A stretch of DNA of 63,699 nucleotides, the filler included, from Bigelowiella natans CCMP2755 (Eukaryota > Protista > Cercozoa), in the NCBI GenBank assembly GCA_000320545.1. It is 8 parts of 8 records of this genome, joined end to end, with 100 filler letters (N's around TTAATTAATTAA, not from the genome) between each part and the next. Parts side by side here need not be neighbours in the genome. Positions count along the whole stretch, not along the records: positions 4,424 to 34,753 come from ADNK01002926.1; 7 more parts are not named here. One strand, given 5' to 3'. Below, piece after piece: positions 17,443 to 62,114 of this stretch. The notes under the pieces were generated by a model that did no database searches, had not been told where the DNA came from, and saw only the letters and a list, made by a program, of their open reading frames with translations. Every line of letters starts with the position of its first letter. Within the stretch, counting starts at the first letter, position 1. A program made the position numbers and the translations under genes.

Positions 17443-18280
17443 TGTCTAGCACATTCATTCCATTCAACGTGTTTACACACACCCTCATCCTGTGTTTCTG
17501 GAGGAGAAGGGGAGGCGTCCGGGAAGGCCTAAAATGGTTCGAAACAAACGAAGAAGAAACCTTTCAAAGTAACAAGAGGAGAAGTTTGTTTTGATTCAGA
17601 ACAATGGAGGTGAACGATTTCTGTTCGAAGCACAGAAAGGTGATGAACGATTTGACCGAGCCAATGCATCCTTGTCATGAGGATTCGCACTCTAGCAGAG
17701 ATCTGTACATGGTTACGAGCGAACATTAAGACTGTACATCTTGACACGCTTTGTCTTGTCATGATTTCTCCAAATGTGACGAATGGGCTCTGTTTCATTT
17801 TGCGGCGTGCGCGCACGTCGCACAACGCAAATGTTGCGCATCATGCTTGCGCGGGCATGCTAGCATGACACCAGAAAATGAGCAAATGAAAGCAACTGCT
17901 CCATGCGTGACATGAAGTGATTCACATTGCGCTGAGCTGTGCGTGGCACGTGATGCCTCGAAGTTTGCTCTGCGAGCTAGCGAGGCTGGCATGAGCTGCG
18001 AGCTTGTGTGCACTTCTAGACTTCTAGACTTGCCAGACTGCATCGCGACAATCCATTTGCTCATGCTAGCATGCGACAAGGCAAAGGCGGAGATGGTGTC
18101 CTCTCTCGTGCAATTTGTGTGATCTGTGACAATTGGGAGCGTGCACTTTGTTGGATGGGTGCCACATGCGCGACAACAACTTCATGTTTGCAAAGCGCTG
18201 ACCGATCATTGTTTGTTCTGCAAAGAGCCACACGCACAAAGCCACCCGCATTGCATGTGGCACACTCTAGCACTTGCCAC

Positions 18281-18321
<41 letters not shown>

Positions 18322-18569
18322 CGTGAGTGTGCGCGTGTGCGTAAGGGTGTGTGAATGACTGTGCTAGCCATGTGTTTGCTTGCTGCACTCCTCCAAGCGT
18401 TGTTGTTAGTCTTTCTTTGGTCACAATGAGATGTTGTGTCATTCACGTACGTTGCAATTTGAGATTTAAGAACATGCACAAGTTGCAGTCTACATCTGAG
18501 CAAAGCAGTGATCATTCAATAGTTTGGCCTTTTTTGCAGTGCCACGTTAATGTTCCTAAATGTATCAAT

Positions 18570-21500: not shown

Positions 21501-22320
21501 ACTGGGGAGTTCTCTTGAAGAATATCTGGGATTGCAAGAAGCTCTTTCACGTATCTAAAATAATGAGACAAATAGTCAGATGTAGCATATAGAAATTACA
21601 TGTTCAACTAGCCTTTGAAGCTGCCATAAACGGAGCCTAATGAATTCTTCATCCATGTTACTGCCAAACACCTTCAACGGATGTATAAATTCAGCTCAGA
21701 TAAAATATGACGCAGAAAACAATTGAATAGTGTAGACCCTCCTAGGAGGCAGCGAAGGGAGTCTTAATTTAGGATCTAGAAAGATAGGATGATCCAATGT
21801 AAGATGAAGCATCATTACAAATTAGCATTCGGTACCAAGCTCACGAAGGTTACGGTGTAAAACGCTAAATTCACTATATCTCTTCTCAATTACCTAAAAC
21901 ATTTTGATATGATTTGAATAATATCTTTTGATTGAAATTAGAAGATACATCTTTACCCATGGGTTAGTGGATGGACTTTGCACATTCATTTCATAGCTGA
22001 CAAAAGGACGCAGTACCGAACGCACCTGTCAATTAGTGCTTGTAATCGTAATGTGCCATAAATCGCATAGCTATCACCTACACAAGCTTGATCGCATTGA
22101 CGTTTACATGAAGCATGAGTTAACTGTACATCATCACAACATCGAGCAGCAATCGAATGCAAGTTCAGTACACTACCTTCGTGAAGTGCGTGAATTTCAC
22201 CTGATAAATTTGTGAATCATTTTAAAAACAAACCCATTAAAATTATCATCATGGACAACAACGATTGCAATCAACGTCCCATTGTTGTCACACAAATCAT
22301 GCAAAATTGCTCACCTCCAT
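18570..22320 (-). CDS. PX (phox homology) domain protein, many short introns
   Basis: Exons translate to RPFVSYEMNVQSPSTNPW / VIEKRYSEFSVLHRNLRE / KLRLPSLPPR / EEFIRLRLWQLQR / YVKELLAIPDIL...ILKFL, matching the PX pattern (RY.EF..L, LP.LP.K/R, R...LQ.Y). The 3' end is approximate. Confidence 0.75.
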
Positions 22321-23097
22321 TATTTCAACTCCGAAAGATGATTGTGACGATTAGGGAATGCCGGCATTGTCAGATGTGAACGGAAAAATCCACGCAATGC
22401 CTGTATTAAAGTTCTGCGACATCAAAACATGAGTGTCGTGTTGCGACAGTCGTCATTCGCGAACAATTTTTCGTTCGCATCCTTTCAAATGCTCCAAATC
22501 CGAATCAACGGGCTGCACTAGATCGATCTAGCACCAACGCATTGACAGAGCGGCGGCAGCACAAAATGCACGTGTCTGCCCAAAGAAATAGCCCGTTTTC
22601 CGAGAAGAACCGCATGTAAATTCACCCTTGAATTTTTTAGAAAGTCTTAATTCTTTCTATCTTTAATTTTCAATTCTCGTGTTGCTTTGCGATAATAGCT
22701 TGGAATCTCACGACCTTTTTCATGTGCGACAATGCTTTGCTCACGTCGTCAGGGGCGGGTTTTCCATCGTTGGAGCTGTTCTGAAGCTGTTCGCTTTCGC
22801 ATTCGAAGGAGAAATCAGATGCACTCTCGACATTGAAGCCCCCTGATTAACCCTCTAAAGGTTGTAATTGCAGCATTTCGTGTGATGTTTGGGTGAAATG
22901 GATGGTATTCTCGTGGACATGGCTCCGTCGGTCACATCAAATCATCTGAGATCATCCAAAACAGTGTGTTCCTAGGTCTTACTTTTGTTAGATTTTTTGT
23001 GGACGCACACTCTCTCATTCTCAATTCTTCCTCCGGTGTCATCGTCGTCGATCTAGGTCTGGGTGGAGGCCGAGGGTCCGGCCCCCCTACCCCTACC

Positions 23098-25203
23098 ATG
23101 GAAGTGGTTGTGCCAGCTCACATCGCCTTCGTGTCGTCCTCCCCACTCAACGAAACCGACAAGGAAAAGCTGAGCCAACAAACGGAGTACGAGCTTCTAC
23201 AAGACGTCGCACGCGACCACCGTCATGTGCACATGCACACATCGAGATGGCGTGCGAGTGAGCCACAGATCCATGCCGCCGCCCGTTCCAATTGTTGTTG
23301 CCTCCACTTCAGCGGACACTGTGACCGGAAAAAAGGACTTGTTATCGAGGAAACCGGCCAGTCAAATGGCAAAGCCGCCCAGAAGAAGTACTTAGGCTCT
23401 CTGGTCGAGATCTTCGGGGGGCTAGGAGACAAAAGGCCAAGGGTTCTCTTCCTGGCCGCGTGTCACAGCAAAGTTGTCGGCCAGCTTGTAGTGGAAAAGG
23501 GCCAAGTGGACTATGCGATGGTCTGCGATGAGCACCACGAGCTTGGCGACAGTGGAGCCCCGGTTTTTGCCAAAAATTTTTACAAAAGCTTGTTGAGCGG
23601 CAAGACCAGAGTCTCTGAGGCTTTCGAATCGGCCAAAAAAGTTCTTGAGGAGATGGCCACAGCACGCAGAGAGGCGGTTATTTCCACGTAAAAACGATAT
23701 TTCCAATCACACGCCAAGAAGAAGGAGTGTGACGAGATGTATTCCAAACTGGAAGAGAAAGCCGAATTGTACGAATACGACGTCACCAGCTCGAAGATGA
23801 AGAAAATTAGGACAGAATGGTACCAACGTCTTCACAACTGGATGAATTCTGAGCACATCAAGAAGAACGAGAAAGAAAAGATCGAGCTCATGCGCAATGA
23901 TCTTGAGTGGGCGCAGTGCCTAGAAGAAGAATCCGTAAAGTATAAATTGCTGCGGAAGAATAAAAAAGAAGACGACGTCCACTTCAAGTTCGAGAAACCT
24001 GATCCCTTGCGCCCCAAAACAGGATGGATTCCCACCCGCCCTTCTTTCTTCTTTAAAACCCTGGTAAGAAGCGAGTACCTGGAGATCATGAACAACTACC
24101 GGTTGTCTCTCAAGAACGATGACGCCGTACTCGAAGGGAAATTTGCGAAGCGCTGGTTGCAAATTGTTGGCGAGAAAGGCATCGGTAAAACCTCGTTAGC
24201 CACAGAAATTGCTTGGATGAGGTGGCATGATGTTGAAGGACCAGATGCTATCTTTTGGGTGAGCAGCTTCTCGTATTTGTCGCTATCCTGCCTCTTTCTC
24301 TCTCTCTCTCTCTCTGAGTTTTTGGGAACACACGTGAAGAAAGCAAACGCCTGCCTTTCATCTAGGTCGATCTTACCGAGGCCACCGGGAAAACAGAGTT
24401 TTTCAGGGCTATCGCCGAGGCGGTGGGCCAAAAATCAGCGGAAAGAATGCAGGATCCTCTTCACGATCTGAAACGGATCACAGGGGTGGAAAACAAAAAT
24501 CGGGTTCTGCTGGTACCATGTCCCTCCCCTTCTCCCTCTTCTCCCTCTTCTTCTCCTTCTCAACCCCCCCACCCCCCCCACATGTCCCGACCTCCTATGC
24601 GTCGCAGAGCCTGTTCACCATTTCCACATTTTCACGCATGATGGTAGGTCTGTGATGACGTGAGCGCTCACATCGACTCCTCCCACTTCCTAGAAGTGCT
24701 GAAGACGAACAAATATCTGCACCTGCTTAGCACCTCGAGAAAGAAAATTGGCCCCCCCGACAGCAATGAGGTGCGAACAATCAATCCAACCAAACAAGCA
24801 ACGAGTGACTTGATCAATTAGGTTCTCACTTTTGAGTTGAGTCGGATTTCTACGAAGTCCAAATTCCGGCTCTTCTTCCGTGCACGGCTGATGAAAGAGT
24901 CGTACACGATAAAACTTCCACAACCGAAGCATTACAGCCAACTCTGGGATTCCTCAGGTGAAATCAGACCACGTCACCCCTCATCATCCTCTAACACAAC
25001 ATGGGATACACACCACATACTTCAATGCAGATCTTCGGACCAAAATGACCGCAGAGATGTGCATGAAGATGGCCACGCGCTACCTTCAAGATGCTAAGTC
25101 TCAGCCTAACGACAAAGCGTTCCCTCCTAAATGTCTTGCACGCATTGCCGAGACTGTGATCGGGGAGGAAGAAAAGGAAGAGAAAGTTGTTCTTGTCTTC
25201 TCT

Positions 25204-25241
<38 letters not shown>

Positions 25242-27260
25242 CGTACTCGCTCAAACATGAACACGGTTTGTTTTGGGTTTTTGTAGGAAAGGTACCTGAA
25301 GACGATGAAAATCATCCCCGCTCAATGTGGTCTCATGACTTTCTTCGTGGGGCGAGAACGAACCATTGAACGGCTCTCTGGTGCATTGCGTGGTGACTCG
25401 AGCAAGCGGATGCACCTTCTCTACGGTCCTGGAGGGATTGGAAAGAGTCAGCTGGCCGCCTACCTGTTCAACTCCCTCATTGAAACCCGCGCATGCTCCC
25501 ACGCGCATTGGCTGAATTGCCAAACGACCGCAGTGCTGCAGGCCGATCACCTGCGCATCGCCGAGAAGATTCCGGGCCTACACGTCGATGGGCGGGAGGT
25601 CGAACCTTCGATCCAGAAAATTAGGGAATGCATCGAGAACGAGCGCTGTCTACTGGCATTCGACGATGCTCCCAATGGCAGAGAATTGTCCAGTTTCCTA
25701 CCTAGAAAGCAAGGGCATGTGACCTCACGTCGAGAAGCAGCAAAGTCAATGATTGGGGGATGGACGTGAAACGCTGGCCGGTCAGTGGGTTCGGAGAGGA
25801 AGATGTCACCCAGCTCGCCGAAAAGTTTGGGTTGTCGATTCCGGGCCCTGGAGAGGACGCGAAGAGGGCCATGGAGCATCTGAAGATGGAGTTCTCGGGT
25901 TACCCCCTGATCCTAGCGCAGTTCTTCGCCTACTGCAGGGAGAATGGACATGGCGTGGCCGCTCGCATCGAGGAGCTACGAAGGAAAAGCCTGAAACGCA
26001 AACGGCAACCCTTCATTGAGCTTCTGAACAAAACTCCCTGTCCGGTGCTTGTCTGCACACAGAGCATGGTCCAAGTGATCCAGGCAAACCTGCACGCGAT
26101 CAGGCATGGCAACGCAGGTGAAAGGGCTCTCGCGTTGTTGAGCGTCTTCGCTCATTTGGACCCGAAAAACACACCGCTGTGGTTGGTTCTCACGTTTGAC
26201 GTTTCGAAGGAGGATGAGACCCGAGACGCGTTGCCTCTCATGGAGCGGTGTTCTTTGACACAATGGAACCGGGAATTGAAGCACATCAGCATGCACGCCG
26301 TCACACAACACGTAGTCAGGCACTTGCAGCCACAGCCTGAGCTTGGAGGGCTGGTTCGAACCCTCATCGCCTGCGCAGCAAAAGACGGAGACGATCGGGG
26401 CGAAGCACTTGACCGCCGTCGGGGAGAGCGGGCCACAGTGCTCCAGCACGGAGCACAGCTCGTCAAATGTGTCTCCGAACCAGTGCTCAACTGGAAGCTG
26501 AAGGTTGCATCAGGGGATGCCTGCGAATTGGAATGCATGCATGAGGAAGCCTCGCGGTGGTGCGGCGAAAGTGCGCGTGTGGCAGGACAGGAACTGAAGC
26601 ATGAAGCAGCCGGAGAAGAGGAAGAAGACAAAAACAGAACGGAAAGGGCATCCGCTAGAAACAGCACAGGAGGTCCACAACCGGCAGACCTTGCAACCAT
26701 TTGGCACAAATTGGGAAACGTGAACAACATTCAGGGCAAGTGCCCGGAGGCGCTCAAGGAATGCAAGAAGGCTCTTGACATCAGGCTGAAGATGCACGGC
26801 ACGGATGAACCCCATCCAGATGTGGCGACTACCTGCAACAACATCGGCTCAGTGCACGATGGCATGGGCAAGTGCCCGGAGGCGCTCACGGAACATGAGA
26901 AGGCTCTTGATGCACAGTTGAAGGTGCACGACACGGATGAACCCCATCCGGATGCAGCGACCACCTGCAACAACATCGGCTCAGTGTGCAAAAACATGGG
27001 CAAGTGCCCGGAGGCGCTAACGGAACACAAGAAGGCTCTTGATGTGCGGTTGAAGGTGCACGGCACGGACAAACCCCATCCTTGTGTGGCGACTACGTGC
27101 AACAACATCGGCTCAGTGCACGTGCACGTGGGGAAGCACCCAGAGGCGCTCACGGAACACAAGAAGGTTCTTGACATGCGGTTGAAGGTGCACGGTGAGG
27201 AGAAACCCCATCCGGATGAGCAGCCACAGAAACATCGGCTCAGTGCACGTGCACATGGGG
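23098..27260 (+). pseudogene. Disrupted NLR-like gene: CHAT (caspase-HetF-TPR) protease + two STAND/NB-ARC-like P-loop NTPase modules + TPR array
   Basis: CHAT dyad motifs LHFSGH and LFLAAC. P-loops IVGEKGIGKTSLA (~24170) and FVGRE...LYGPGGIGKSQLA (~25420) with a Walker-B-like CLLAFDDA. In-frame TAA at 23689-23691 (the frame continues into the 23737 ORF) and a frameshift at ~25760. The TPR half is TpA-hypermutated. Confidence 0.8.
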
Positions 27261-27265
27261 AAGCA
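26690..27265 (+). repeat. Tandem 132-bp (44-aa) TPR repeats, kinesin-light-chain/NPHP3 type
   Basis: GGGCAAGTGCCCGGAGGCGCT recurs at 26734, 26866 and 26998, with a variant at ~27130. The unit is GK[C/H]PEAL.E[C/H].KALD..LK.HG.D.PHP.VATTCNNIGSV[H/C]. Confidence 0.92.
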
Positions 27266-29596
27266 CCCGTGCCGCATTTCGTTCAATTTTCAATGCATTT
27301 TTCTCTGGCTTTCATTGGAAAATCATTGTCATCATCGCAGACTTCGCATTGTGCATCAATGCACCGCTGGGAACAACCGCGCCGCATTTCATGCACGTGC
27401 ACACGATGAACGTGCAACATCATCATGGACACGTTTTGAAAACCTGAGAAAAATGCACATGCATGCATGCATGTGTTCGTTGCAGACCACTCCAGCCAGC
27501 ACTTCTTCGTGTCGTGGACTGGTGTCAGCGTGACACCCATTCATCCTCTCAATCGTGCACGATTTGCACAACCCTCGCACACCGATCCAACAGAGATGAT
27601 GGTGCACACGTCTGGACGTGCATGAGACGGATGCATCCACAATGCAATTGATCAATCAAAAGTTTTGAACAATGAACAATGATGAAAAACTGCATTTCGA
27701 ATGGTCATCTTTTCGCACAAGCACGTGCAACACGAGCCGAGGGCGATGTGCACTCCAGAGTGAGCGCGACACAGTGAACTTGCATTGAACACTGAACAAA
27801 GCATTGATCAAACCTGCACGCGGCAGAACCACACGGGAGACAGGCGTGTGCGTGCAGCAGAGCCTCAACAAACACCATTGCAAGGCCAGAAGGACTTGTC
27901 AGCACCCTGTCTGGCTGTTGGTGGTGAACAACACAACCAGCTGGTGTCCTGCACCCAGGCTGGCAGGACGACGAGGCTGGGAGAATTGTCTGTCAATTGG
28001 TGGTGCAGTTGGAGTGTGTCTGGGTTCCAACTGACGTTCAGATTGGAAGAGGTTGGACCTGATCAACAACCTCGAAGTCATTGGCGACGTGAAAAAACTG
28101 TTGCGAACTTGATTCAGATCAGTTTCAGTTTGACCTGAGCCCTCTGGCCCTCCCCAAAGCTCAAATTGGACACAGCTGGACAGTGGAGTTTTCAATCCAC
28201 GCACTTCCTGTGACACGATGTTGATTGACCGAAAGGAAGTGCGGAAAGTTTTTCGGGAGTGAAAACTGTTTGGTGTGAACCTGTTCGAGTCAGTCCAGCA
28301 GTGATGCAATCGAGTGAAGGGTTCACTTGGGAAGAATCTTTGGACACGTGTCACCTTTCGAACTTGATTCCGTTTGGTTTTGGTGTGAGTGATCTGAGCT
28401 CTCCCCAAAGCTCAAACCAGACAAGAGTGCAGTCATTTCAAGTCTGCTTGGGATGAATCCGTTCGAGTGAGACGTGCAGTCGAGCAAAGACTTCGTCCGG
28501 GAAGGACTTGCAATGCAGATCCAAACTTCCTTCATCGGGCAACCAAGACACCGGTCTGGCGGTGTGGCTGGGGTGACACGTCTGTCCATCCCACCGGCAA
28601 ACTGGAATGTGGTTCAGGTGTGGGAGGAAAAGCCACCCTCGTGACTCAAAACCCCCCCAACCATCACCGCATTGCGCGCCAACAGGAGAACAACTCGAGG
28701 GTCTCTCGAGTTTTTTGAATCACCATTGGAATCACTTCGTCTCACAATCCACCTGCTCGTTGATTCAATTGTTCCATCAATCGATGGATCAACGCTTGCT
28801 GAGGCAAACACAACGAAACGAGGTCCAAAGCTTCGACAGAAATGAAAATTGGACAAGAGAAAGCAATTGCTCCGAAGTGTGGACACAGCTCGTACCGCGC
28901 GGTGTGCAAATTGACACGTGATTGGATCACTTGTCAAAAAGTGTCATGTTTGAACTGCACGATGATTCACAATGGTGTCCACAGGAGTGTGCGTGATGCA
29001 CGTCGCCGTTGCACACGCAGCACATGCAGACATCGCTAGATCGTGACGGCACACATCGATCGTGACGGTGCATGCACATCGCAACACACACGTGTGCACA
29101 AACACACTTTGCTGACGCTGGAACGTCTAGCGCATGAATCCAGTGAATTGCATGCGTGCTGCATGCATGGTCGAAAAGTCGATGATGCGATGGACATGGC
29201 ATGTGTTGTGTGCATGCATGTCCATGATGTCGCCATGCAAATGCACGCTGAACTAGCTAGTGAAGTGAATGCATCAATTGTTCAGTGGTTCATTGCACAT
29301 CACAATGGGTCACCATTGCAATGACGCATGCGACGCAACAAGTGGGAGTCACCATGCGCTCGCGTTGTGTCATCTCAATTGTTCAGTCGCGTGATGCGAC
29401 ATCGATTCACACAGCAATGGTGTAAATTTTGCTTTTGTCTAGCTAGACGTTCGGACAATCATCTTGCAATTGTGGCAACAATAGGTGCGCCATGATTGAT
29501 TGAATGCACATTTGTTTTGTTGCTACCGTGACATAGCGTCGATTTAGATGAAAGCAGCTTTGCACTAATCGCTAGCAAAAACTGAGATTCTACTTC

Positions 29597-52635: not shown

Positions 52636-53736
52636 TTAACTAACAAAGAATCCCCTATCAACTTGCTTTCTTTTTCGCTTACTTGTCCGTATTTCAACAG
52701 GTTCATCGGTCCACTTCTCCCTTGGTTTCGGTGTTTTTTTCTTAATTGCTTTTTTGACTATTTCGTTTTCAGCAGGTTTCAGTTGATTCTTGCTGAAAGT
52801 TTTATCTAAAACACCTTCCAAAATATATCTTACTGGTCGGTCAGGTAATAATAATATGTTTTCAATTTTGTGCGGTTTCAACGAATATCTTATGTCGCCC
52901 TCCCTGAAATTGCCTATTTGTTTCTCTCCTTTAAAATTCACAGGATAATCCAATTTGTATCTCACCTTCCTACCGACCTCGTATAAATCACAATCGCCTC
53001 CCTCCTTACAAGGAACTTCTCCTGTCTGCTTCAACTTCTTCACCTTAGCATTCTCGTTCAACTTCTTCAATATGTCAGGTAATAACTTTAACCACTGCTT
53101 ACTTACTTTATCGTTCTCTAATTCTTTCACCAACTGAGTTTTAATAATAATACTGCCGATACTCTTATTTCGTGCTTCCACATTTGCTTGTTGACTATGT
53201 CTCGCAATACCCGCCCTTCTTAAATATATCCCTTTCTCTTTCAAATATCCATCTAATCCTTTTTTAAATTCACTACCAGCATCTACTTGTAGGATTTTCG
53301 GCGGTTTTAATACCTTGTTCTCGTAATATATCTTGTCTATCGCTTTTCTTACCGCTTCAGCAGTCCTTTTTCGTAGAGGTATAGCATCAGTTTGTTTAGT
53401 ATAATTATCTACTGCTACTAATAAATATCTAAACCCTCTATCATTAGGTAGATAGAGCAAGTCCATCTGTCCTCGCTTACCTGGGTACCCATAGGCATCG
53501 TTGTGAGTTGCTTTTACTTCAGGGTCTTGCTTTTTCTCCCTGGTCAGTTCATCTACTAAATCTTTACTCTTCTTACCGATTAAACTTCCCAGTATGGTTG
53601 GTTTCTTCTTTCGTTTGACTATCTTTTTCCGTTTGACTATCTTTTTCACTATTTTCTTTTTAGGCATTTCAGTTTCAGTATCAGTATCATCATCATCACT
53701 ACTGCTTTCGCTACTATAAGGTTCTTTCTCGTCCAT
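52636..53736 (-). CDS. Retroviral-type (rve) DDE integrase
   Basis: QMDLLYL...YLLVAVDNYTK (D1), LQVDAGSEF (D2) and NVEARNKSI (E), with a C-terminal SH3-like YEVGRKVRYKL...RYILE. Confidence 0.93.
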   Translation of the reverse strand: MDEKEPYSSESSSDDDDTDTETEMPKKKIVKKIVKRKKIVKRKKKPTILGSLIGKKSKDLVDELTREKKQDPEVKATHNDAYGYPGKRGQMDLLYLPNDRGFRYLLVAVDNYTKQTDAIPLRKRTAEAVRKAIDKIYYENKVLKPPKILQVDAGSEFKKGLDGYLKEKGIYLRRAGIARHSQQANVEARNKSIGSIIIKTQLVKELENDKVSKQWLKLLPDILKKLNENAKVKKLKQTGEVPCKEGGDCDLYEVGRKVRYKLDYPVNFKGEKQIGNFREGDIRYSLKPHKIENILLLPDRPVRYILEGVLDKTFSKNQLKPAENEIVKKAIKKKTPKPREKWTDEPVEIRTSKRKRKQVDRGFFVS

Positions 53737-53778
53737 ATATACATAATGTGAGATATAAAATATATGTAGTTTATTTTA

Positions 53779-53973
53779 ATGGATAAAGAAATAGAACGAA
53801 TACTCATACACAAGGGATTAACCAAAGGAATAATAAGTATGATAGATGAATACCTATATCAAAGTTATTTAGTGTGTTTAACTCACAATTTCCGCAGACT
53901 TAACAATAGTCCTAAACTTAGGTTTATCAACAAATTAAATTATAAAAAAAAAATATGTAAATTAATAATATAG
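53779..53973 (+). CDS. Small viral hypothetical protein
   Basis: 64-aa ATG-initiated ORF in the gene-dense viral region. Confidence 0.45.
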   Translation: MDKEIERILIHKGLTKGIISMIDEYLYQSYLVCLTHNFRRLNNSPKLRFINKLNYKKKICKLII

Positions 53974-53977
53974 AAAT

Positions 53978-54154
53978 ATGATAAAGTTAATATATGATTT
54001 AATCGTAAATTTGCTACCAGACAATTTTACAACATACAGGAATGATGATGCTGTTGTGGTTTATGACAGGTCGGTGTGGAAGATGGAAAGCAAAGACGAT
54101 GCTATCTTATTGATTAAGAAGAATATATGTAATATATCAATAATAAATTGTTAA
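53978..54154 (+). CDS. Small viral hypothetical protein (58 aa, below ORF-track cutoff)
   Basis: MIKLIYDLIVNLLPDNFTTYRNDDAVVVYDRSVWKMESKDDAILLIKKN..., abutting the previous ORF. Confidence 0.45.
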   Translation: MIKLIYDLIVNLLPDNFTTYRNDDAVVVYDRSVWKMESKDDAILLIKKNICNISIINC

Positions 54155-54254
54155 TATATATTTATTCCAGATTTCATTTTCAACACATTCAACCCTCTTG
54201 AAGGTGTTGAAACACAATATTAAATTAAATATAAAAATATATAGTATAATATAT

Positions 54255-55214
54255 ATGAATAGTATACTCAAAGATGTTGACAGAACTTCTCTCTTTCCAA
54301 TCAGGCACAAAGACATATGGAATGCCTACAAGATACAACAAGCAGGATACTGGACTGCCGAAGAAATAGATTTCAGTAATGATGCCGATGACTTCTCCAA
54401 ATTAAGTCAGGACGAACAAAAGTACTTAAAATATACTCTCATCTTCTTTGCGAATAGTGATATTGAAGTGAATGAAATGATAAATAGGAATCTATATGAG
54501 GAGTTTAAGGCATTAGAAATTCGTATGTGCTACGACTTTCAAAGGCAAATGGAAAATATACACACAGAAACATACAATCTACAGATAGATACTTTGATAA
54601 AAGATAAAAAAGAGAAGGAGGATTTAATAAATGCTGTAAAGAATAATCCTATTATAGAACAAAAGATTAATTTCTGTAGGAAACAGGTCTTGTTGTACAA
54701 CTCCATACAGCATAAATTGATATGTCAGGTCATCTTTGAAGGCATATTCTTCGCTTCCTCGTTTGCTTGTATTTACTACTTCAAGCAGAAAGGTATATTG
54801 AAAGGTCTAACTTTATCTAATGAGTTTATCAGCAGAGATGAGAACCTACATTATAGTTTCAGTATTATGCTATACAATAAGTTAGAGAAGAGACTATCAC
54901 AAGCAGAAGTAGCGGTGTTGTTTGATAAGGCACTATGTATTGAGAGAGACTTCATCACACAAGCATTACCTGTTAGATTGTTAGGAATGAATGCGGATAT
55001 GATGTTAGACTATATCAAATTCACAATAGACAACATATTACTCAAATTAGGTTATGATACAATCCACAATGTGAGTAATCCTTTGACCTGGATGGAAAGA
55101 CTGGATTTACAAGGCAAGACCAATTTCTTTGAGAGTAGAGAAAGCAACTACCAATCTGCTAATGTATTAAACGAGAACAAAGAAGACATCTTCCAAGTAG
55201 ACCTCAATTTTTAA
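54255..55214 (+). CDS. Ribonucleotide reductase small (R2) subunit, class Ia
   Basis: LFPIRHKDIWNAYK...YWTAEEIDFSND, MENIHTETY (Fe ligands + radical Tyr), EGIFFASSFACI, GLTLSNEFISRDENLH, GKTNFFESRESNYQ and C-terminal ..LNF. Confidence 0.97.
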   Translation: MNSILKDVDRTSLFPIRHKDIWNAYKIQQAGYWTAEEIDFSNDADDFSKLSQDEQKYLKYTLIFFANSDIEVNEMINRNLYEEFKALEIRMCYDFQRQMENIHTETYNLQIDTLIKDKKEKEDLINAVKNNPIIEQKINFCRKQVLLYNSIQHKLICQVIFEGIFFASSFACIYYFKQKGILKGLTLSNEFISRDENLHYSFSIMLYNKLEKRLSQAEVAVLFDKALCIERDFITQALPVRLLGMNADMMLDYIKFTIDNILLKLGYDTIHNVSNPLTWMERLDLQGKTNFFESRESNYQSANVLNENKEDIFQVDLNF

Positions 55215-55231
55215 TATCTAAATTATTATAG

Positions 55232-55441
55232 ATGCTACTGGAAATAGTTAGACTATTACAATTACAACTACGATTAACAAGATTAAGAAAAGAGATAAAC
55301 AAATTGATAAAGCAAAACAAGAAACTGATAAAAGAGAACAGCAAATTGTTGATACAATTAAATATTATGAAACAACCCTTTGATGACACTGGTGATTTAA
55401 CTGATAGTGCTTTTAGAATGTTGATGAACGACGAAAAATAA
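55232..55441 (+). CDS. Small coiled-coil viral protein
   Basis: Heptad Leu pattern LRKEINKLIKQNKKLIKENSKL; TCTA 11 nt upstream. Confidence 0.55.
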   Translation: MLLEIVRLLQLQLRLTRLRKEINKLIKQNKKLIKENSKLLIQLNIMKQPFDDTGDLTDSAFRMLMNDEK

Positions 55442-55456
55442 TCTAATCTTTATTAA

Positions 55457-55567
55457 ATGATTGTAGTGTTATTAATATTAGGACTTATCTTTTCCATAGG
55501 TTATACAATAGGTAAGATAGTAGCAAGGAACACGGATTTAGACCCCACCAACGATATTAGAGTATGA
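55457..55567 (+). CDS. 36-aa single-pass membrane micro-protein
   Basis: MIVVLLILGLIFSIGYTIGKIVARNTDLDPTNDIRV*; TCTA 11 nt upstream. Confidence 0.5.
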   Translation: MIVVLLILGLIFSIGYTIGKIVARNTDLDPTNDIRV

Positions 55568-55868
55568 TGAGATTAAATTTATCAGCATAGTCCTCTAAAC
55601 TATCCTTCAAATCAGGTTTATTCCACAAGACCCAACAAGATAATGAACCAGCAGTCAGGAATTTACTCCAATCTTCATTCTTCATATGCCTTATCAGGTA
55701 TCTATCTTTTCTGTTTTCATCTTTATGTATCGTAAAGTCGCTATACCGACTATCTCCAAAGTCTGTGTGTTTTACTTTTATTATCCTTCCACCCTTATCA
55801 ACATAAAAGAGCATCCTATGCTTCTTATTTTTAAGAGGTGATTTCATTAGTTTAATATATATTTTCAT
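55557..55868 (-). CDS. Conserved viral hypothetical protein (DUF5754-like)
   Basis: KS..KNKK...FG...YSDFTIHKD..RK.RYL.RH...EDW....AG.LS..VLWNKP pattern typical of giant-virus/virophage small proteins (recognised from memory). Confidence 0.7.
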   Translation of the reverse strand: MKIYIKLMKSPLKNKKHRMLFYVDKGGRIIKVKHTDFGDSRYSDFTIHKDENRKDRYLIRHMKNEDWSKFLTAGSLSCWVLWNKPDLKDSLEDYADKFNLIIL

Positions 55869-55883
55869 ATTATAATAGTTAAC

Positions 55884-55982
55884 ATAAAATAAATTGTTAA
55901 AAAAACAATTTATTTTATATTAAGAGGAAAAATAAATTTCTATTTATTTTTTCTTGTTCTTAACAAGAATATTATAATATAA
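55884..55982. terminator. Cluster of AT-rich hairpins 3' of MCP (putative hairpin polyadenylation/termination signals)
   Basis: ATAAAATAAATTGTT-aaaaa-AACAATTTATTTTAT (15-bp stem, 55884-55918), AAAAATAAAT-ttct-ATTTATTTTT and TTCTTGTT-ctt-AACAAGAA. Confidence 0.55.
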
Positions 55983-55985
55983 AAT

Positions 55986-57800
55986 TTATAATAAAGAAGA
56001 GAGTTTCTTTTTCATCCCGCCACCACTTACAGATGCTTTACCTCCTATCTTTTTCTTCAGCACATTTGCTCCCATTTTAAGAACGGCATCTTGAACTTTA
56101 GGATTAGAGGCAATATTTTTCACAGTTTTTCCAACTTTAGATGCTAAACTGCTGAAGAACCCTGAACCGACTAATTTGTTTTCAACATCACTTCCTCCAA
56201 ATTGTGCTGATAATACATCCTGTTCTGTAATAAGGTTCTTAACAATCATAGAAGAACCTGCTACAGTCTTGAAAAATCCTGATTGAGGGGTCATAACTAC
56301 AAGTTGAAGGTTTGGAATAGCAACATCACCCATTGCTGTAGGTTTCATACAGGTTGCTTGGACTTGTAATGTGTAGTTTCCAATCACACCTGGTGCTTGA
56401 GAAGGGTTTAATTCAATATCTTTACCCATCTTAGCAATAACGAACCCACCACTGGTGTGGATTTTTCTGCCTTTACTTCTACTGCTTCCAATGTAGGTGT
56501 GGAAATCAATTTCTAATCCATTATCATAACTCATCTTGTATAATTTATCCATAGGCATTGTGTTTAAAAGACCGCTTCTGTTATCAAATGTAATGTTTAA
56601 ATTTGTGATGGGAAAATAGAATTCATTTTCTGTTGAATCATATTTTGTTTTCTTAACAGCAATAATTAAACTATCAGGGATACTTGGTAATGTTATGGTG
56701 GATGATATTATGGTTTTACTGTTGTTTGTCCCTTGAGGAAGACCAGTAGTATCAACAGTTCTATATGTAGGGAACTCCATATATGGGACAATATTTTCAG
56801 GACTGACTTTGAGGTCTAAAGCAGGAGTTAAACACACAACATCTATATAACTTTGTAAAAATGGTGACTTTCCATTTAATGTAACGAATTCTGCTTTACA
56901 GGTTATAGCACCTGCTTGAGTGCCGATTCTGTTTCCATCGTAGCAGACTGCTCTGCTTGGGTCTTTGAAATTGATTTGGAGAGTAGCATTATTAACACCG
57001 TATAAACCTACACTATGATAATTCTCTGGAACATAGCATAACGGACTAATCATAAGTTTCTCTTTGGATGTAAATTTTAGGTAAAATTTATATTGTGCTT
57101 GGACATTACCACCAACTGCTCTTACGACTGGTTCGCCATCCACATATGGATAAGCAACACCACCTATGTTCACATTTCCATTACCATTTAAATCAGTACC
57201 AGTACCATCTACAAAACTAACATCAAAATGTGCTCCATTCTTGTGGTAGAATTTATCGCCGTCAAAGAACCCAGTAATACTATTATTGAATGCCCCTTTG
57301 CCTTCGCTATATTTTCCATAAGGTGATAAATAGGACGGGCAAATCGCACTGCTACTGTCATATTTTGGGTCAGTAGTTATTAGAAGCAACTGCTCGTTTA
57401 TGGATTGGTCTAAATTGGTTGTGGATACTGTATCGTTGATTTGAAGACTCATTGTGGAAACCATTCTGTGTAAAGGGAAATTGTTTAATGATAAGATTTC
57501 ACTTAAGGTTGCGATTTTAGCATTAGCAGCAGGGTTTCCACCAGCACCAAGATCAGCATTAGTATTAAAATCACCTCTGTTTACAGTAACTAAAAGGGTG
57601 ACCTCGCTGGTCCAGTTTATCTTTCGGTCAACAAAGACATTCAAAGAAGGTATTGTAATGTTATAGTTTTGATTACTTGCACTTGCGGATAAGGATTTAA
57701 TCTGTTTGTTATTGACTGACATAGAACTCTTAGAGATTTTATATTCAGGTGGTAACTGAACTGTTCTCGCATCATAAACTGCTTTCTTACTTAAATTCAT
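55986..57800 (-). CDS. Virophage major capsid protein (double jelly-roll)
   Basis: 604 aa with NITIPSLNVFVDRKINW, FPLHRMVSTMSLQIND, EKLMISPL, GLYGVNNATLQINF, STITLPSIPDSLII, FPITNLNITFDNRSGLL and APGVIGNYTLQV, which are virophage MCP-type motifs. Adjacent to the penton gene. Confidence 0.93.
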   Translation of the reverse strand: MNLSKKAVYDARTVQLPPEYKISKSSMSVNNKQIKSLSASASNQNYNITIPSLNVFVDRKINWTSEVTLLVTVNRGDFNTNADLGAGGNPAANAKIATLSEILSLNNFPLHRMVSTMSLQINDTVSTTNLDQSINEQLLLITTDPKYDSSSAICPSYLSPYGKYSEGKGAFNNSITGFFDGDKFYHKNGAHFDVSFVDGTGTDLNGNGNVNIGGVAYPYVDGEPVVRAVGGNVQAQYKFYLKFTSKEKLMISPLCYVPENYHSVGLYGVNNATLQINFKDPSRAVCYDGNRIGTQAGAITCKAEFVTLNGKSPFLQSYIDVVCLTPALDLKVSPENIVPYMEFPTYRTVDTTGLPQGTNNSKTIISSTITLPSIPDSLIIAVKKTKYDSTENEFYFPITNLNITFDNRSGLLNTMPMDKLYKMSYDNGLEIDFHTYIGSSRSKGRKIHTSGGFVIAKMGKDIELNPSQAPGVIGNYTLQVQATCMKPTAMGDVAIPNLQLVVMTPQSGFFKTVAGSSMIVKNLITEQDVLSAQFGGSDVENKLVGSGFFSSLASKVGKTVKNIASNPKVQDAVLKMGANVLKKKIGGKASVSGGGMKKKLSSLL

Positions 57801-57830
57801 ATATAATTACACCGAGAAAAAAAATTTAAA

Positions 57831-59120
57831 CTATTTTTGCTTTCGTTGAAACATCAGTTTTAGATGGATGCTACTTTTGTTAGGCATTCGTATAGGGACT
57901 AAATCACCGGTTAAGCGATGCTTCCAAAATGCCGAAATCTGTATACTTTTTAAGGGGATGTTCGCAGAGGTAAAGTTAATATATCTGTATTCACCGCTTG
58001 GAACATAGGTAATCGTTCCGCTATAATCATCGGCACTACTAATACCTACTGTCATATCACTAATAACCTTTTGGGAGGTATCTTGCCTACTATCGCTTAC
58101 TTGCTGTCGGTCTACAAATTCTAAAGGTGTTCCTGTGATTTCACTCTCAATGGGAATGATATTGGTAGTAAATACAATCGCACTGACTGGACACCATAAA
58201 CTGCTCACACTCTCATAGTCTTGAGATAAAATACTATATGTTTTATTTCCTTTGGTGAGTGAATGAATGTCTAAATCATCCTCAATTGGTAGAATATCGT
58301 AGGCACATCCTGGTATAGACATATTTTCTACTATATCAGTAATCGTGCCTCTGTTATATTCTATAGTGTTTTTAAGGTCGCCTCCTATGTAGTTGTGATG
58401 AAAATTGCTAAAGAGTAAGAAGAGGTTGCTGTTAAAAAACAATCTACCTTTCACATCAAAAATTGTATTGTTGAACCTGTTGTCTTTCTTTCCGTGTATA
58501 TCCTTGTCTAAATAAAGTTTAAATAACTGCGAACTCTCTTCATAATAAAGTATAGGTGCTTTGAGATTGTCTAAATGTGTTATTTCATCAGGAAGAAGAC
58601 CTGGGACTTCTGCTTTACATTTAGCAATCAGGTTGTCGTGACATCGTTTAAGAGTTTTGTTTATCAAGTGTGCTATATGACTATAGGTAGAGACATAGTA
58701 ATAATTGGTAGATAAATCCATCTGCTTCCCTACAGTTGTGGGTGGACTGGTGTTTTTGTTCTGGGTTTCAAAATAGACAGTTTCGGTCTGAGACTTTTTG
58801 TGATGTATCCCATTTTGAATAAAGTGGTAGAACAGAGTTATTTTGTAAATGGTCTTATTCGCATCGGTCTGGTCTCGCTCAATTTCAGGTATGAATATAG
58901 GGATTTCTCTACCTACACCATTTAATTGAAACCGAATGATGGAGAAATACCAACTGCTGACATCGTCTAATAATGCCTTTGATAGGGTGTCTGTATAACT
59001 CACTACAGGATTATCCTTATTGCTGTCTATGGTCTCGTTATTCACAATATCTAAATTGTAATAAAGGTGGTCTTGATGCTCTTTGTTAAAATTATTCATA
59101 GCAAATATATAACTATTCAT
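57831..59120 (-). CDS. Virophage minor capsid (penton) protein
   Basis: HLYYNLDIVN, YFSIIRFQL...IPIFIP, WCPVSAIVFTT..IPI and YVPSGEYRYI...PLKSIQISAFWK...IKLMF-like end; immediately upstream of MCP. Confidence 0.9.
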   Translation of the reverse strand: MNSYIFAMNNFNKEHQDHLYYNLDIVNNETIDSNKDNPVVSYTDTLSKALLDDVSSWYFSIIRFQLNGVGREIPIFIPEIERDQTDANKTIYKITLFYHFIQNGIHHKKSQTETVYFETQNKNTSPPTTVGKQMDLSTNYYYVSTYSHIAHLINKTLKRCHDNLIAKCKAEVPGLLPDEITHLDNLKAPILYYEESSQLFKLYLDKDIHGKKDNRFNNTIFDVKGRLFFNSNLFLLFSNFHHNYIGGDLKNTIEYNRGTITDIVENMSIPGCAYDILPIEDDLDIHSLTKGNKTYSILSQDYESVSSLWCPVSAIVFTTNIIPIESEITGTPLEFVDRQQVSDSRQDTSQKVISDMTVGISSADDYSGTITYVPSGEYRYINFTSANIPLKSIQISAFWKHRLTGDLVPIRMPNKSSIHLKLMFQRKQK

Positions 59121-59145
59121 TATTAATAAAATTTAGATAATTTTT

Positions 59146-59856
59146 TTAATATTTTAAATTGTTTTTTTTGATGTATTGTGATGCTTCAATAAACTTTAGT
59201 CCCTTATCTTTCATCAATTTTTTAATCAAAGCACCCCTTCGTTTCCTTCTGTCGTTTGGATTTGTGGATTTGACCCTTGACTTAACAATCTTCAATCCTT
59301 TATCACATTGGATGATGTTGCTTCGGTTGGTTTTCCTTTTCTTTTCTGTACTGATGATGGTGGGTGTTATGCGACGAGACGGTTTGGATTTTTTAGTTTT
59401 CCTTCCTTTTGTAACATCTACCTCATTGATTTCATCCAGCGATTTGCCTGTGTATTTAAGTGCGATGTCGTTCAACCTTTCTCGTTCTGCTTCCTGTGCT
59501 TTTGTTCCACCTTTTTTCTCATTATCAGCACCTCCATAGTGGTATCCTTTTCCTTTGACTTTTTGAATGAGTGCCTTTATATTAATCTTTTTCTTCTTCT
59601 TCTTTTTGTGTTTTACTCCAGATGCTTGGACGACTTCATTCGCTACATCCAGGACAGGTGCTATCTCAGGTATTAATTTTTTACCCACTTTCATAGGTAT
59701 TGAAAACCCCTTCTTAAATCCTTTGTGAAAGTCTTTCCAAAATCCAGCACCCATTAAATTCTTTAGTTGTTTAACTTCGTCATCCATTTCCATAATGTTC
59801 TTAGCATAGTGTAATCCTAACTCTGATGCTCTTGATTTATCAGCATTCTGTGACAT
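59146..59856 (-). CDS. Highly basic putative core/structural protein with Gly-x-Gly and Gly-Gly sites
   Basis: Lys/Arg-rich, with LMGAGFWKDFHKGFKKGF, KGKGYHYGG and C-terminal RGALIKKLMKDKGLKFIEASQYIKKNNL. Co-oriented with the capsid genes. Confidence 0.65.
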   Translation of the reverse strand: MSQNADKSRASELGLHYAKNIMEMDDEVKQLKNLMGAGFWKDFHKGFKKGFSIPMKVGKKLIPEIAPVLDVANEVVQASGVKHKKKKKKKINIKALIQKVKGKGYHYGGADNEKKGGTKAQEAERERLNDIALKYTGKSLDEINEVDVTKGRKTKKSKPSRRITPTIISTEKKRKTNRSNIIQCDKGLKIVKSRVKSTNPNDRRKRRGALIKKLMKDKGLKFIEASQYIKKNNLKY

Positions 59857-59906
59857 ATGTATATATATATAAATCATTAGATATTTTTTTTTTCTCAATA
59901 AAATTT

Positions 59907-59910
59907 TCTA
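59907..59910 (+). promoter_or_regulatory. TCT[A/C] late-promoter-like motif (example; recurs upstream of at least 8 viral ORFs)
   Basis: TCTA/TCTC in AT-rich context 11-14 nt upstream of the ATG at 50170, 53736, 55232, 55457, 57800, 59120, 59924 and 60547. Confidence 0.7.
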
Positions 59911-59923
59911 TATAATAATTAAT

Positions 59924-60526
59924 ATGGTGAAAAAATTTAAAGATGTCATTGATGAGAAAGAGTATTACATAGGTTCTGTGAATTCCTATAAACAAAAACC
60001 TACAGACATAAACCAAAACCTAAAATTAAAATATGATAGTGATACTTTTGATGTATATATAGATGATAGGTTGAAGGTGTTGAAATACAATCCTGAACAA
60101 GTTAGAAGTTTCTTTGATTTTGTAAAATGAAGGTTTGACTATACCCCAACTATGCTTAAGGCACACAGCTTAGACCAACCTGCTTTCAGGAAACTATATA
60201 ATTACGAAGATGGAAACCCAACGATATTACGGAACGACTATGTAGAAGGCGGCAAGCACCTAAACTCCCAAATGAATATCTCGCCTGATGTGTTGTTAAA
60301 CCTCATTAAGAAAAGCGGATACAAACCTATATTTAATAAGAAAATATACCAAAACAGGACCGATAAAAGCAATGCTACTTGCGGAAGATGGGTTCTCTTA
60401 AGGTTCGCTTTTTCAAAATACAACCTCAAAGAGTTTGACAGGATTTTAAAACATATAAAAAATAAGACCTGTATCAATTCATTAGAATTGAGTGTTTTAT
60501 ATACAAATGAAATTTTAAATAAATAA
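59924..60526 (+). pseudogene. Virophage maturation cysteine protease, apparently broken (C-terminal half recognisable)
   Basis: FNKKIYQNRTDKSNATCGRWVLLR is the Q..C adenain/Ulp1-type motif. ORFs 59924-60130 and 60152-60526 are in the same frame, separated by TGA at 60128-60130. No clear GHW catalytic His motif. Confidence 0.65.
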
Positions 60527-60546
60527 TTATCTAAACTTATATATAT

Positions 60547-61329
60547 ATGAAAAAAAATAATGCTATGATAAAAGGACACGACGAGAAAAAACGAATCCCC
60601 TTCTATGATAACACACGAAGATTCATCTTACAGAGGGCAAAGCAGTCTATTGATTATAATAAGAAGAAAATGAATGAATACATAAATGGTAAATTACTAC
60701 CCCATATCCTTCCCCCAGATACACCAACAGGAGCATTCAACAGATTACACATCCAATCTCTCCATTCGGCGATGCCTATTGATAGCAATAGTGCTTATGC
60801 TACTACTAAAAGAGGTTCAGGTAGGTACTACAACAACATTTTCAAAAATATGCTTGAAAACAAGAGGCAGTTTTTTGCTGAAAGAGATGCTCTTAAACAG
60901 GGTTTATCTGTGTTGAAAGAAGATGATGAGAAACCTGCTACTGAAAAGGAAAGCATCTTCAAAGGGGAGAGTGGTTATGTAAAGATGCTTAACCAAGTCG
61001 TTGATTTATTTGAGGAAGGTGATTACAGCGAGATAAAACTAACCTACTTACGAAATGCTTACTCACAACTCAAAAAGGAATACAACACGATAAAAAAAGA
61101 TGATGTTGTTAAATATGCTAAATTTATCGCATCAGTGATAAAGTATCATTTTGAAGGAAACAAAACATTCACTCGTAATGTTAAGGGCAAACAACTTAGA
61201 GTGACTGCTAAGAGTTTTCCTAAATCAAAGTTAATGGTCTTCTTCAAGATATTAAACCTAAGTGTCATCATATTAGGCAATAAAAATAAGTCTGACGAGG
61301 AACTTAAAATCGTTATTGAAAGGAAGTAG
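60547..61329 (+). CDS. Viral hypothetical protein (260 aa)
   Basis: Intron-less AT-rich ORF with TCTA 13 nt upstream; contains KRGSG. Confidence 0.7.
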   Translation: MKKNNAMIKGHDEKKRIPFYDNTRRFILQRAKQSIDYNKKKMNEYINGKLLPHILPPDTPTGAFNRLHIQSLHSAMPIDSNSAYATTKRGSGRYYNNIFKNMLENKRQFFAERDALKQGLSVLKEDDEKPATEKESIFKGESGYVKMLNQVVDLFEEGDYSEIKLTYLRNAYSQLKKEYNTIKKDDVVKYAKFIASVIKYHFEGNKTFTRNVKGKQLRVTAKSFPKSKLMVFFKILNLSVIILGNKNKSDEELKIVIERK

Positions 61330-62114
61330 CAAGATGCTAAATGCCCCTAAAACTCCACAGGCAGGAGAGACCTTTTCAATGATTTAAAGAGCAAATATAA
61401 TGTAAGCATCCCTACATANNNNNNNNNNNNNNNNNNNNNNNNNNNNNNNNNNNNNNNNNNNNTTAATTAATTAANNNNNNNNNNNNNNNNNNNNNNNNNN
61501 NNNNNNNNNNNNNNNNNNCTCCGTATGCATTCAATGTCGACATCGTCAAGAAAAGGGGGCGTTCCACCGTGAGAGAACACCCCATGACAATCAAGTTTCC
61601 CCCCCCCCCCCCCCCTATTTATCGCCTTCTTCGTCTTGCACTCACCTCAAGTGTTTGTAGCTCGCATTCAAAATCGATCAGATTCGCGAAGTCAAACTCC
61701 GTAAAGCACCCGAATGATGATTCTCTATCATTTGTTTCTGTTTGTACTGCGGCGTCACTGCTTTGAAGCTCCCCCCCTTCGCAAATCTACGAGAGTGAGT
61801 GGGAACACGGGCAAGGAGGGGGGGACGCACATCGTCAGAAGAAGGACAGAGCATCACGTGCATGCACCCCCCGAAGAAACACACATGAGGCACCTCTCCA
61901 TCTGCGGCGAGCTGTGCCCCGAGCGCATCGAGTTTGTTTAGTACAAAAGAAACACACGGAACTTCGGCCTGCCAATCTGCGATGTTCAGCGGGACGCTCA
62001 CTCCTGTATTATGTTGAGTATATATATATATACGCTACTGTATTTCTAACACCGCTCCTACTTCCATGAATGAGGGAAATGTTGAGATTAATATTCATTC
62101 ATGCAACTTTGAGT

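Follow-up and report, generated by a model that had tools for sequence, protein, structure and literature searches.

A near-saturated TpA-depleted domain over a broken STAND-TPR gene and multicopy DNA in Bigelowiella natans

The locus

We analyzed a 63,699-nucleotide stretch of DNA from Bigelowiella natans CCMP2755 (hereafter the window) that contains a domain, at 25980–29420, in which the dinucleotide TpA is nearly absent and TpG and CpA are enriched. The domain spans the end of a broken STAND-TPR (NLR-like) gene, multicopy repeat segments without family assignment (hereafter the insert) and TA-poor shoulders on both sides, and it lies next to an expressed gene. The features of the locus are as follows (positions are those of the window):

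22897..27269, + strand: broken STAND-TPR (NLR-like) gene (Pfam and open reading frames; frame changes read from the sequence)
25980..29420, no strand: TpA-depleted, TpG/CpA-enriched domain (10 TA against 190 expected)
25980..26737, + strand: left shoulder, TA-depleted coding DNA with 2 TA (at or near single-copy contig depth)
26693..27220, + strand: four 132-nt TPR repeats with Cys/His codons at Tyr-rich columns (repeat and homolog alignment, contig depth, TAC-bearing paralogs)
27096..28892, no strand: TA-free core of the domain (0 TA against 107 expected)
27643..28728, no strand: insert, multicopy repeat segments with no family assignment (contig depth)
28729..29420, no strand: right shoulder, TA-depleted non-coding DNA with 5 TA (single-copy contig depth)
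29487..30636, − strand: spliced, expressed neighbour gene, seen in part (RNA-like contig of sequencing run X15 with CT..AC joints; raw RNA reads of run X24)

The STAND-TPR gene encodes AAA_16, NB-ARC, TPR_10 and TPR_12 domains (Pfam, above cut-off), along with CHAT-like and NACHT-like regions that match weakly, below cut-off. It looks like a host gene with introns. The reading frame changes near 25760 and 27220, a partial fifth TPR repeat follows 27220 out of frame, and the gene is truncated near 27270. Only its final 1.3 kb lie within the TA-poor domain, which then continues for 2.15 kb through unrelated sequence.

Loss of TA and gain of TG and CA

The domain contains 10 TA dinucleotides, whereas base composition predicts 189.8. 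TA starts in and beside the domain are at 25977, 26313, 26656, 26830, 27018, 27094, 28893, 29037, 29128, 29254, 29258 and 29423. The gap between 27094 and 28893 (1799 nt) is the longest in the window, the next longest being 697 nt. An initial annotation of this DNA had counted by eye about 5 TA in 25980–27095 and none in 27096–28892, and these counts are exact. Judged by how often TA occurs upstream in the same gene, the depletion has Poisson probabilities of 2e-19 (core) and 6e-24 (whole domain).

The missing TA is balanced by other dinucleotides. Within the domain, the dinucleotide ratio rho is 0.05 for TA, 1.63 for TG/CA and 0.84 for CG, compared with 0.41, 1.11 and 0.89 in the upstream part of the gene. 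The sum of TA, TG, CA and CG is similar inside and outside the domain (251–265 per kb versus 222–256 per kb in the flanks), which indicates that the lost TA reappears as TG and CA. The ratio of TG to CA on the + strand is 0.87, and both strands are thus affected. TA loss is strongest over the insert, and the non-coding part of the domain is as TA-free as the coding part. These observations support a regional, near-saturating change of TpA to TpG or CpA on both strands at the DNA level. The initial annotation was therefore right about the regional extent, the near-saturation and the involvement of both strands; its further statement that the A of TpA is changed to G goes beyond what the sequence can distinguish, as discussed below.

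Presence in DNA sequencing runs

We aligned four sequencing runs to 25290–30700 at 80% likeness: two DNA runs (X6 and X14) and two RNA runs (X15 and X24). At least half of the words of 22500–30500 are present in 20 of the 24 sequencing runs listed, all under one organism label, and 8 runs carry a flag as possible sources of the window. Among the contig pieces listed for X14, exact matches cover 25290–27628, 27856–28649 and 28656–30700; among those listed for X6, they cover 25290–27695 and 27856–30700. About 160–230 nt near 27630–27855 fall outside these pieces. X6 and X14 do not differ from each other anywhere in their exact pieces. Contigs of two DNA runs thus reproduce most of the domain letter for letter, with 0 differences, which rules out an assembly artefact.

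These data bear on the idea that the TA deficit reflects an assembly or sequencing artefact, or ordinary avoidance of TA at the codon level. Coding DNA in the window is mildly TA-poor (rho 0.41–0.52), and the window may derive from one of the two DNA runs, which is flagged accordingly. The exact match to X14, a DNA run of another year that carries no such flag, refutes an artefact for the stretches spanned by exact contig pieces. Codon-level avoidance conflicts with the equal loss of TA from non-coding DNA and with probabilities of at most 2e-19 against the gene's own TA rate. We give such explanations practically no credence.

Direction of change

TG and CA at the same alignment column are compatible with either an ancestral TA or an ancestral CG, and outgroups decide between the two. 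We aligned the window TPR repeats with 898 homologous repeats from 162 of 175 proteins and found six columns in which homologs have Tyr at a frequency of 0.22–0.64. In five of these (Tyr 0.22–0.64, Arg at most 0.01), the 18 window codons that align read TGC, CAC or CAT without exception. The codon sets quoted in the initial annotation are thus present in the window repeats. Its argument that only an ancestral TAC or TAT could explain them was too strong, as CGC would account for TGC and CAC as well, yet homologs and paralogs favor TAC. The ancestral ATA that it proposed for the column with GAC-ATG, GAT-GTG and GAT-GCA is plausible (homologs have Ile at 0.81), although ATC is found in one repeat and ATG in a paralog snippet.

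Several further comparisons point from TA to TG and CA. The STAND-TPR gene has no Tyr codon among 413 codons inside the domain, compared with 18 of 706 upstream (P=3e-4). The TPR repeat type is present elsewhere in the genome, as indicated by raised contig depth and TAC-bearing paralogs. In three paralogous contig snippets, from runs of the same organism label, TAC is present at four positions, which correspond to three of the window's Cys/His columns. Five of the six listed C>T or G>A differences between 26779–26855 and paralogous contigs restore TA. Among the TPR repeats, TG<>CA exchanges account for 25 of 32 double transitions (6 non-independent pairs; 5 clean columns). The corresponding figure is 8 of 9 in a tandem repeat at the end of a virophage elsewhere in the window (described below), versus 1 of 10 in a control, the Kelch repeats of the same virophage.

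Some comparisons pull the other way. In the sixth Tyr-rich column (Tyr 0.48), all four window repeats have Glu, and repeat 1 enters the homolog alignment only after its first 14 residues. The paralog tally that favors TA in the TPR part does not extend to the insert, where, with 40 of 215 differences listed, only one of nine C>T or G>A differences from related copies brings back TA, and in three of the nine the window has CG where the related copies have TG or CA. Run-wide difference counts in X14 (C>T 30, G>A 30, T>C 20, A>G 25) show only a modest asymmetry. The change from TA to TG and CA is firm for the TPR part, as the initial annotation had concluded, and for the insert we infer the same direction. 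A TA>TG change on one strand reads as TA>CA on its complement, so sequence alone cannot say whether the A or its paired T is modified.

Deamination of methylated CpG would likewise produce an excess of TG and CA, and some columns among the repeats and related copies do have CG opposite TG or CA. This process cannot remove TA. CG is undepleted in the domain (57.8 per kb versus 58.7 per kb upstream; rho 0.84), TG/CA is enriched about 1.6-fold while TA falls to a rho of 0.05, and relatives have Tyr rather than Arg at the diagnostic columns and TAC in paralogs. CpG decay as the main cause is thus refuted, in agreement with the initial annotation, and we consider any origin of the TG/CA excess by this route extremely improbable.

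A second B. natans gene model with TPR repeats (P0053) is 76% identical to the window repeats over 55 residues. It also has Cys or His at the Tyr columns, with one Tyr in 332 residues. The TPR family in B. natans may, judging from this pattern, hold several hypermutated copies. The best longer TPR match (P0108) was rejected as an orthologue of the window gene, as only the repeats match.

Multicopy DNA, shoulders and transcription

Both the TPR repeats (26738–27280) and the insert (27643–28728) have a summed contig depth that far exceeds the level of unique DNA; in 25652–26737 and from 28729 on, depth is at or near that level. For the insert, summed contig depth in X14 is about 3.5–60 times that of the unique flanks, a figure that does not give a copy number. 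TA loss extends about 750 nt to the left and about 690 nt to the right of the multicopy DNA, forming shoulders of approximately 0.7 kb.

RNA reads from related copies of the insert lie on the − strand. Part of the insert (28444–28677) is matched at 36% by a B. natans gene model (P0188). A short motif at 27666–27698 is common to many contigs, in which the left flanks are diverse and the shared right continuation is unlike that of the window copy. We read this motif as the likely terminus of an abundant repeat family that is transcribed from the minus strand. The strand of the RNA and the diversity of the flanks lead us to guess that the insert is the 3′ end of a long interspersed nuclear element.

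Searches for the family of the insert gave little. Among 26 open reading frames there was no informative Pfam match; four weak matches fell short of the cut-off, and three of the four lie downstream of the TPR gene. No longer homolog was found for a 170-aa open reading frame, and phmmer returned three weak matches for a 93-aa frame, one of them a B. natans model. An Atlas search gave matches at 0.75 only, metagenomes contained no match to a pattern from the insert, Rfam gave no match at gathering level in 16000–31000, and a search for terminal inverted repeats produced none that was convincing.

The neighbour gene is represented by an RNA-like contig that is exact from 29487 and by raw RNA reads over 29272–29995. 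Its 3′ end coincides with the return of TA at the right edge of the domain. We take it to contain RRM-like motifs, which Pfam on one exon did not confirm. Six RNA-like runs contain 0.51–0.56 of the words of 22500–30500. In the two aligned RNA runs, there is no long exact piece in the domain and almost no depth in its unique parts (6% of X24 read).

Editing of an RNA, followed by reverse transcription and insertion, could in principle leave A>G changes in DNA. Related insert copies do have RNA reads, and ADAR favors U before the edited A, as stated in the discussion of a preprint on B. natans (Mettrop et al., bioRxiv 10.64898/2026.01.13.699255). An RNA origin is at odds with the alternation of TG and CA at the same columns of one strand and with a TG/CA ratio of 0.87, which shows no one-strand bias. 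The patch also crosses gene, insert and flank without a seam, no retrocopy ends are found at the domain edges, and de novo DNA mutations of the same type have been measured in B. natans (Mettrop et al.). We therefore regard hyper-edited RNA as a most improbable source.

Other TA-poor patches, a virophage and the surviving TA sites

The window contains two further TA troughs and an endogenous virophage:

47500..49300, no strand: second TpA-depleted patch (21 TA against 123 expected; adjoins the left end of the virophage)
49800..61418, no strand: endogenous virophage body (major and minor capsid, rve integrase, ribonucleotide reductase (RNR) small chain, SAM-Kelch)
17450..18400, no strand: third, weaker TA trough (rho 0.27 for TA and 1.71 for TG/CA; directly 3′ of a cyclin gene)

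The second patch fades into the first virophage open reading frame and may or may not belong to the virophage element. In that frame (49295–49804), rho for TA rises along a gradient from 0.28 to 1.1, and a 45-nt coding repeat has Cys in two units where Tyr might be expected. The gradient and the Cys residues suggest that the change spread into the viral gene. Comparison of the three troughs after collapsing TG and CA to TA revealed no homology among them. The third trough is bracketed by a 19-nt inverted repeat that is not significant (reached in 3 of 40 simulated sequences), and 8 of its 16 surviving TAs are in CTAG; we identified no element there.

The virophage body, which ends at an assembly gap (61419), keeps its TAs (rho 0.88 in 52600–61400). 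Its capsid and integrase genes lie within 52600–59100, and a gene with a SAM domain and Kelch repeats (50412–52565) has a GC content above that of the rest of the element. The RNR small-chain protein belongs to a 90% cluster of 10, in which all five named members are B. natans models, and the RNR copies of this family are 99–100% identical with no loss of Tyr. A review counts 38 virophage-like elements in the genome of B. natans (PMC6723459). Among viral contigs we found no unmutated relatives of the virophage, and metagenomes gave only four distant RNR loci, which were not used.

In the virophage body (49800–61400), most 4-bp palindromes are rarer than expected (observed/expected: ACGT 0/11, GCGC 0/8, TCGA 0/32, GATC 1/43, CTAG 0/25, CATG 3/38, TGCA 11/60, GTAC 7/26, AGCT 9/35), whereas host flanks show no such avoidance. 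Chlorarachniophyte giant viruses methylate TGCA and RCGY, in one case with an adjacent endonuclease (10.1101/2025.11.19.688996), and the avoidance thus likely reflects escape from helper-virus restriction systems. TGCA and CATG occur at 20.6 and 17.8 per kb in the 47500–49300 patch, compared with 0.95 and 0.26 per kb in the virophage body; hypermutation in this patch makes sites that the virophage body avoids.

The TAs that survive favor CTAG. Across three troughs, 12 of 23 lie in this context, compared with 35 of 549 in the flanks (P=2e-8), and in the main domain 9 of 10 contain CTA or TAG. The C and G that flank surviving CTAG sites cannot arise from the TA to TG/CA process itself. Survival of TAG runs contrary to the UAG preference of ADAR-type enzymes; the passages we consulted provided no source for a 3′ preference of ADAR.

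Relation to reported TpA hypermutation and to other mutators

De novo TpA hypermutation has been described in B. natans mutation-accumulation lines (Mettrop et al.). The preprint counts 231 de novo mutations within two regions of viral origin; with one exception they are A>G or T>C changes, each of which lies at TpA, and the rate is approximately 6e-7 per site per generation. It further reports 324 coding sequences with a mean TpA of 0.0018, enriched in transposase and reverse-transcriptase domains, and 124 clusters of TA-poor, TG/CA-rich windows. Mettrop et al. compare the process with repeat-induced point mutation (RIP) and propose, as a hypothesis only, an ADAT2 deaminase candidate with motifs tied to DNA editing. 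The large hypermutable region from a nucleocytoplasmic large DNA virus (NCLDV) is reported to be single-copy and silent.

The domain in the window shares with these findings the host, the TpA>TpG/CpA spectrum, the TA-poor and TG/CA-rich signature, an extent like that of the clusters of at least 3 kb, and near-zero TpA. It very probably results from the same process. The phenomenon is thus already known and the locus is one more instance of it, and the proposal in the initial annotation of an undescribed system no longer stands, as the same spectrum has been measured in this organism (Mettrop et al.). The locus itself may already be tabulated in Tables S6, S8 or S10 of the preprint. Our literature search for earlier reports of a TpA-only A>G spectrum returned no relevant one besides this preprint.

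The preprint links its targets to transposon and viral DNA; here, the second patch adjoins a virophage and the insert is multicopy without a family assignment. Several features differ from those reported. The visible victim is an intron-bearing host STAND-TPR gene together with that repeat, the patch is saturated (10 target sites left in the domain), the shoulders lie in apparently unique DNA, and the surviving sites favor CTAG. The terms TPR, NB-ARC, CTAG, spread and trinucleotide are absent from the main text of the preprint.

Fungal RIP resembles this pattern in being regional, specific to a dinucleotide, made up of transitions on both strands and linked to repeats. It differs in that RIP is a C>T change, mostly CpA>TpA, that makes TpA, whereas here TA is lost and CA is gained. 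RIP needs duplications, a sexual cycle and a cytosine-methyltransferase homologue (RID/DIM-2 dependence). The B. natans process, unlike RIP, occurred in clonally propagated lines and in a single-copy region (Mettrop et al.). In Neurospora, RIP is reported to leak into single-copy DNA over at least 930 bp (PMC2973834), a distance comparable to the length of the 0.7-kb shoulders. A multicopy center that leaks into unique flanks, as in RIP, fits this locus; the multicopy virophage body is undepleted.

ADAR acts on RNA and APOBEC acts on C, and we know of no case in which ADAT2/TadA, ADAR or APOBEC editing resulted in heritable chromosomal A>G change to saturation. The likeness to these systems lies in A>G change with a 5′ T/U preference, described for ADAR in the preprint, and in deamination directed against foreign nucleic acid.

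Mechanism

We favor, as the probable explanation, that the patch is an old and near-saturated target of the B. natans TpA hypermutator, which would act on silent repeated DNA and spread into unique flanks. The repeats (TPR array and insert) would mark the locus as silent, and an ADAT2/TadA-type enzyme would turn the A of TpA into inosine. Replication would then fix G and destroy the TpA on both strands, so that each site would be used once and yield either TG or CA. Repeated rounds over many generations would exhaust the sites, spread approximately 0.7 kb and halt at transcribed DNA, with CTAG as the poorest substrate. For two components of this scheme, adenine deamination as the chemistry and repeats as a trigger that allows spreading, our preference is slight.

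The same targeted process might instead involve chemistry on T, such as 5-hydroxymethyl- or 5-formyl-uracil made by a TET/JBP-type enzyme and mispairing with G, or an A in TpA that is first methylated and then deaminated or miscopied. TA>CA and TA>TG describe a single event, each as read from one strand, and all data presented here fit such a modified base equally well. TpA is palindromic like CpG and would suit a maintained mark, and thymine hydroxylation is reported to be tied to transposon silencing in dinoflagellates (PMC11572971). The survival of TAG noted above is a further point in favor of this rival. Against it, none of the 10 papers listed by our search on such marks names Bigelowiella, the genus is likewise absent from two methylation papers, and the preprint offers an ADAT2 candidate with motifs linked to DNA editing. 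We consider a modified base unlikely but worth keeping in mind beside adenine deamination.

Foreignness or silence of the insert, recognized through an RNA- or chromatin-guided mark, could also be the trigger in place of repetition, with the TPR gene hit as a neighbour. The NCLDV target is single-copy and silent (Mettrop et al.), TA loss in the domain is deepest over the insert, the RNA runs have no long exact piece in the domain and almost no reads beyond its multicopy bins, and the multicopy virophage body is unmutated. Against such a trigger, the insert has no family assignment, and the second TPR copy, with Cys or His at its own Tyr columns, raises the possibility that the TPR family is itself a target. 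A trigger of this kind is a tentative but real possibility, to which we prefer repetition with spreading.

Other observations weaken the case for hypermutation nucleated by repeats. The multicopy virophage body keeps its TAs, implying either that repetition alone is insufficient or that the insertion is young, and the single-copy state of the large hypermutable region in the preprint argues against a pure repeat trigger. The shoulders are unique by a definition based on contigs at least 80% alike, which more diverged copies escape. Under the cluster rule of the preprint (three consecutive 1-kb windows; our rho formula may differ slightly), the domain is recovered in two of four window phases and missed in the other two. 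The CTAG excess comes from 23 sites only, none of the 21 in the virophage-side patch is in CTAG, and the excess could reflect new TAs instead of spared ones. Both the enzyme and the trigger at this locus are inferred.

Significance

In a broader and rather doubtful extension of this scheme, the TpA mutator would be a true mirror of RIP that nucleates on repeats, foreign or own, spreads approximately 0.7 kb, is stopped by transcribed genes and spares CTAG. Such a mutator would erode host NLR-like TPR arrays and virophage ends, where it would create the TGCA and CATG palindromes that the virophage avoids.

Beyond the main text of the preprint, this locus adds shoulders of about 0.7 kb in apparently unique DNA, an edge at an expressed gene and surviving sites that favor CTAG. 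A single preprint, of 2026, describes the process, and the visible edges of a saturated locus open its enzyme and its targeting rule to testing. The shoulders indicate how far the change spreads, the halt at an expressed gene hints at a boundary set by chromatin or transcription, and the CTAG survivors define a sequence preference that a candidate enzyme would have to show in vitro as well. For genome defense and base editing alike, a TpA-specific A>G mutator of DNA found in nature would be of interest.

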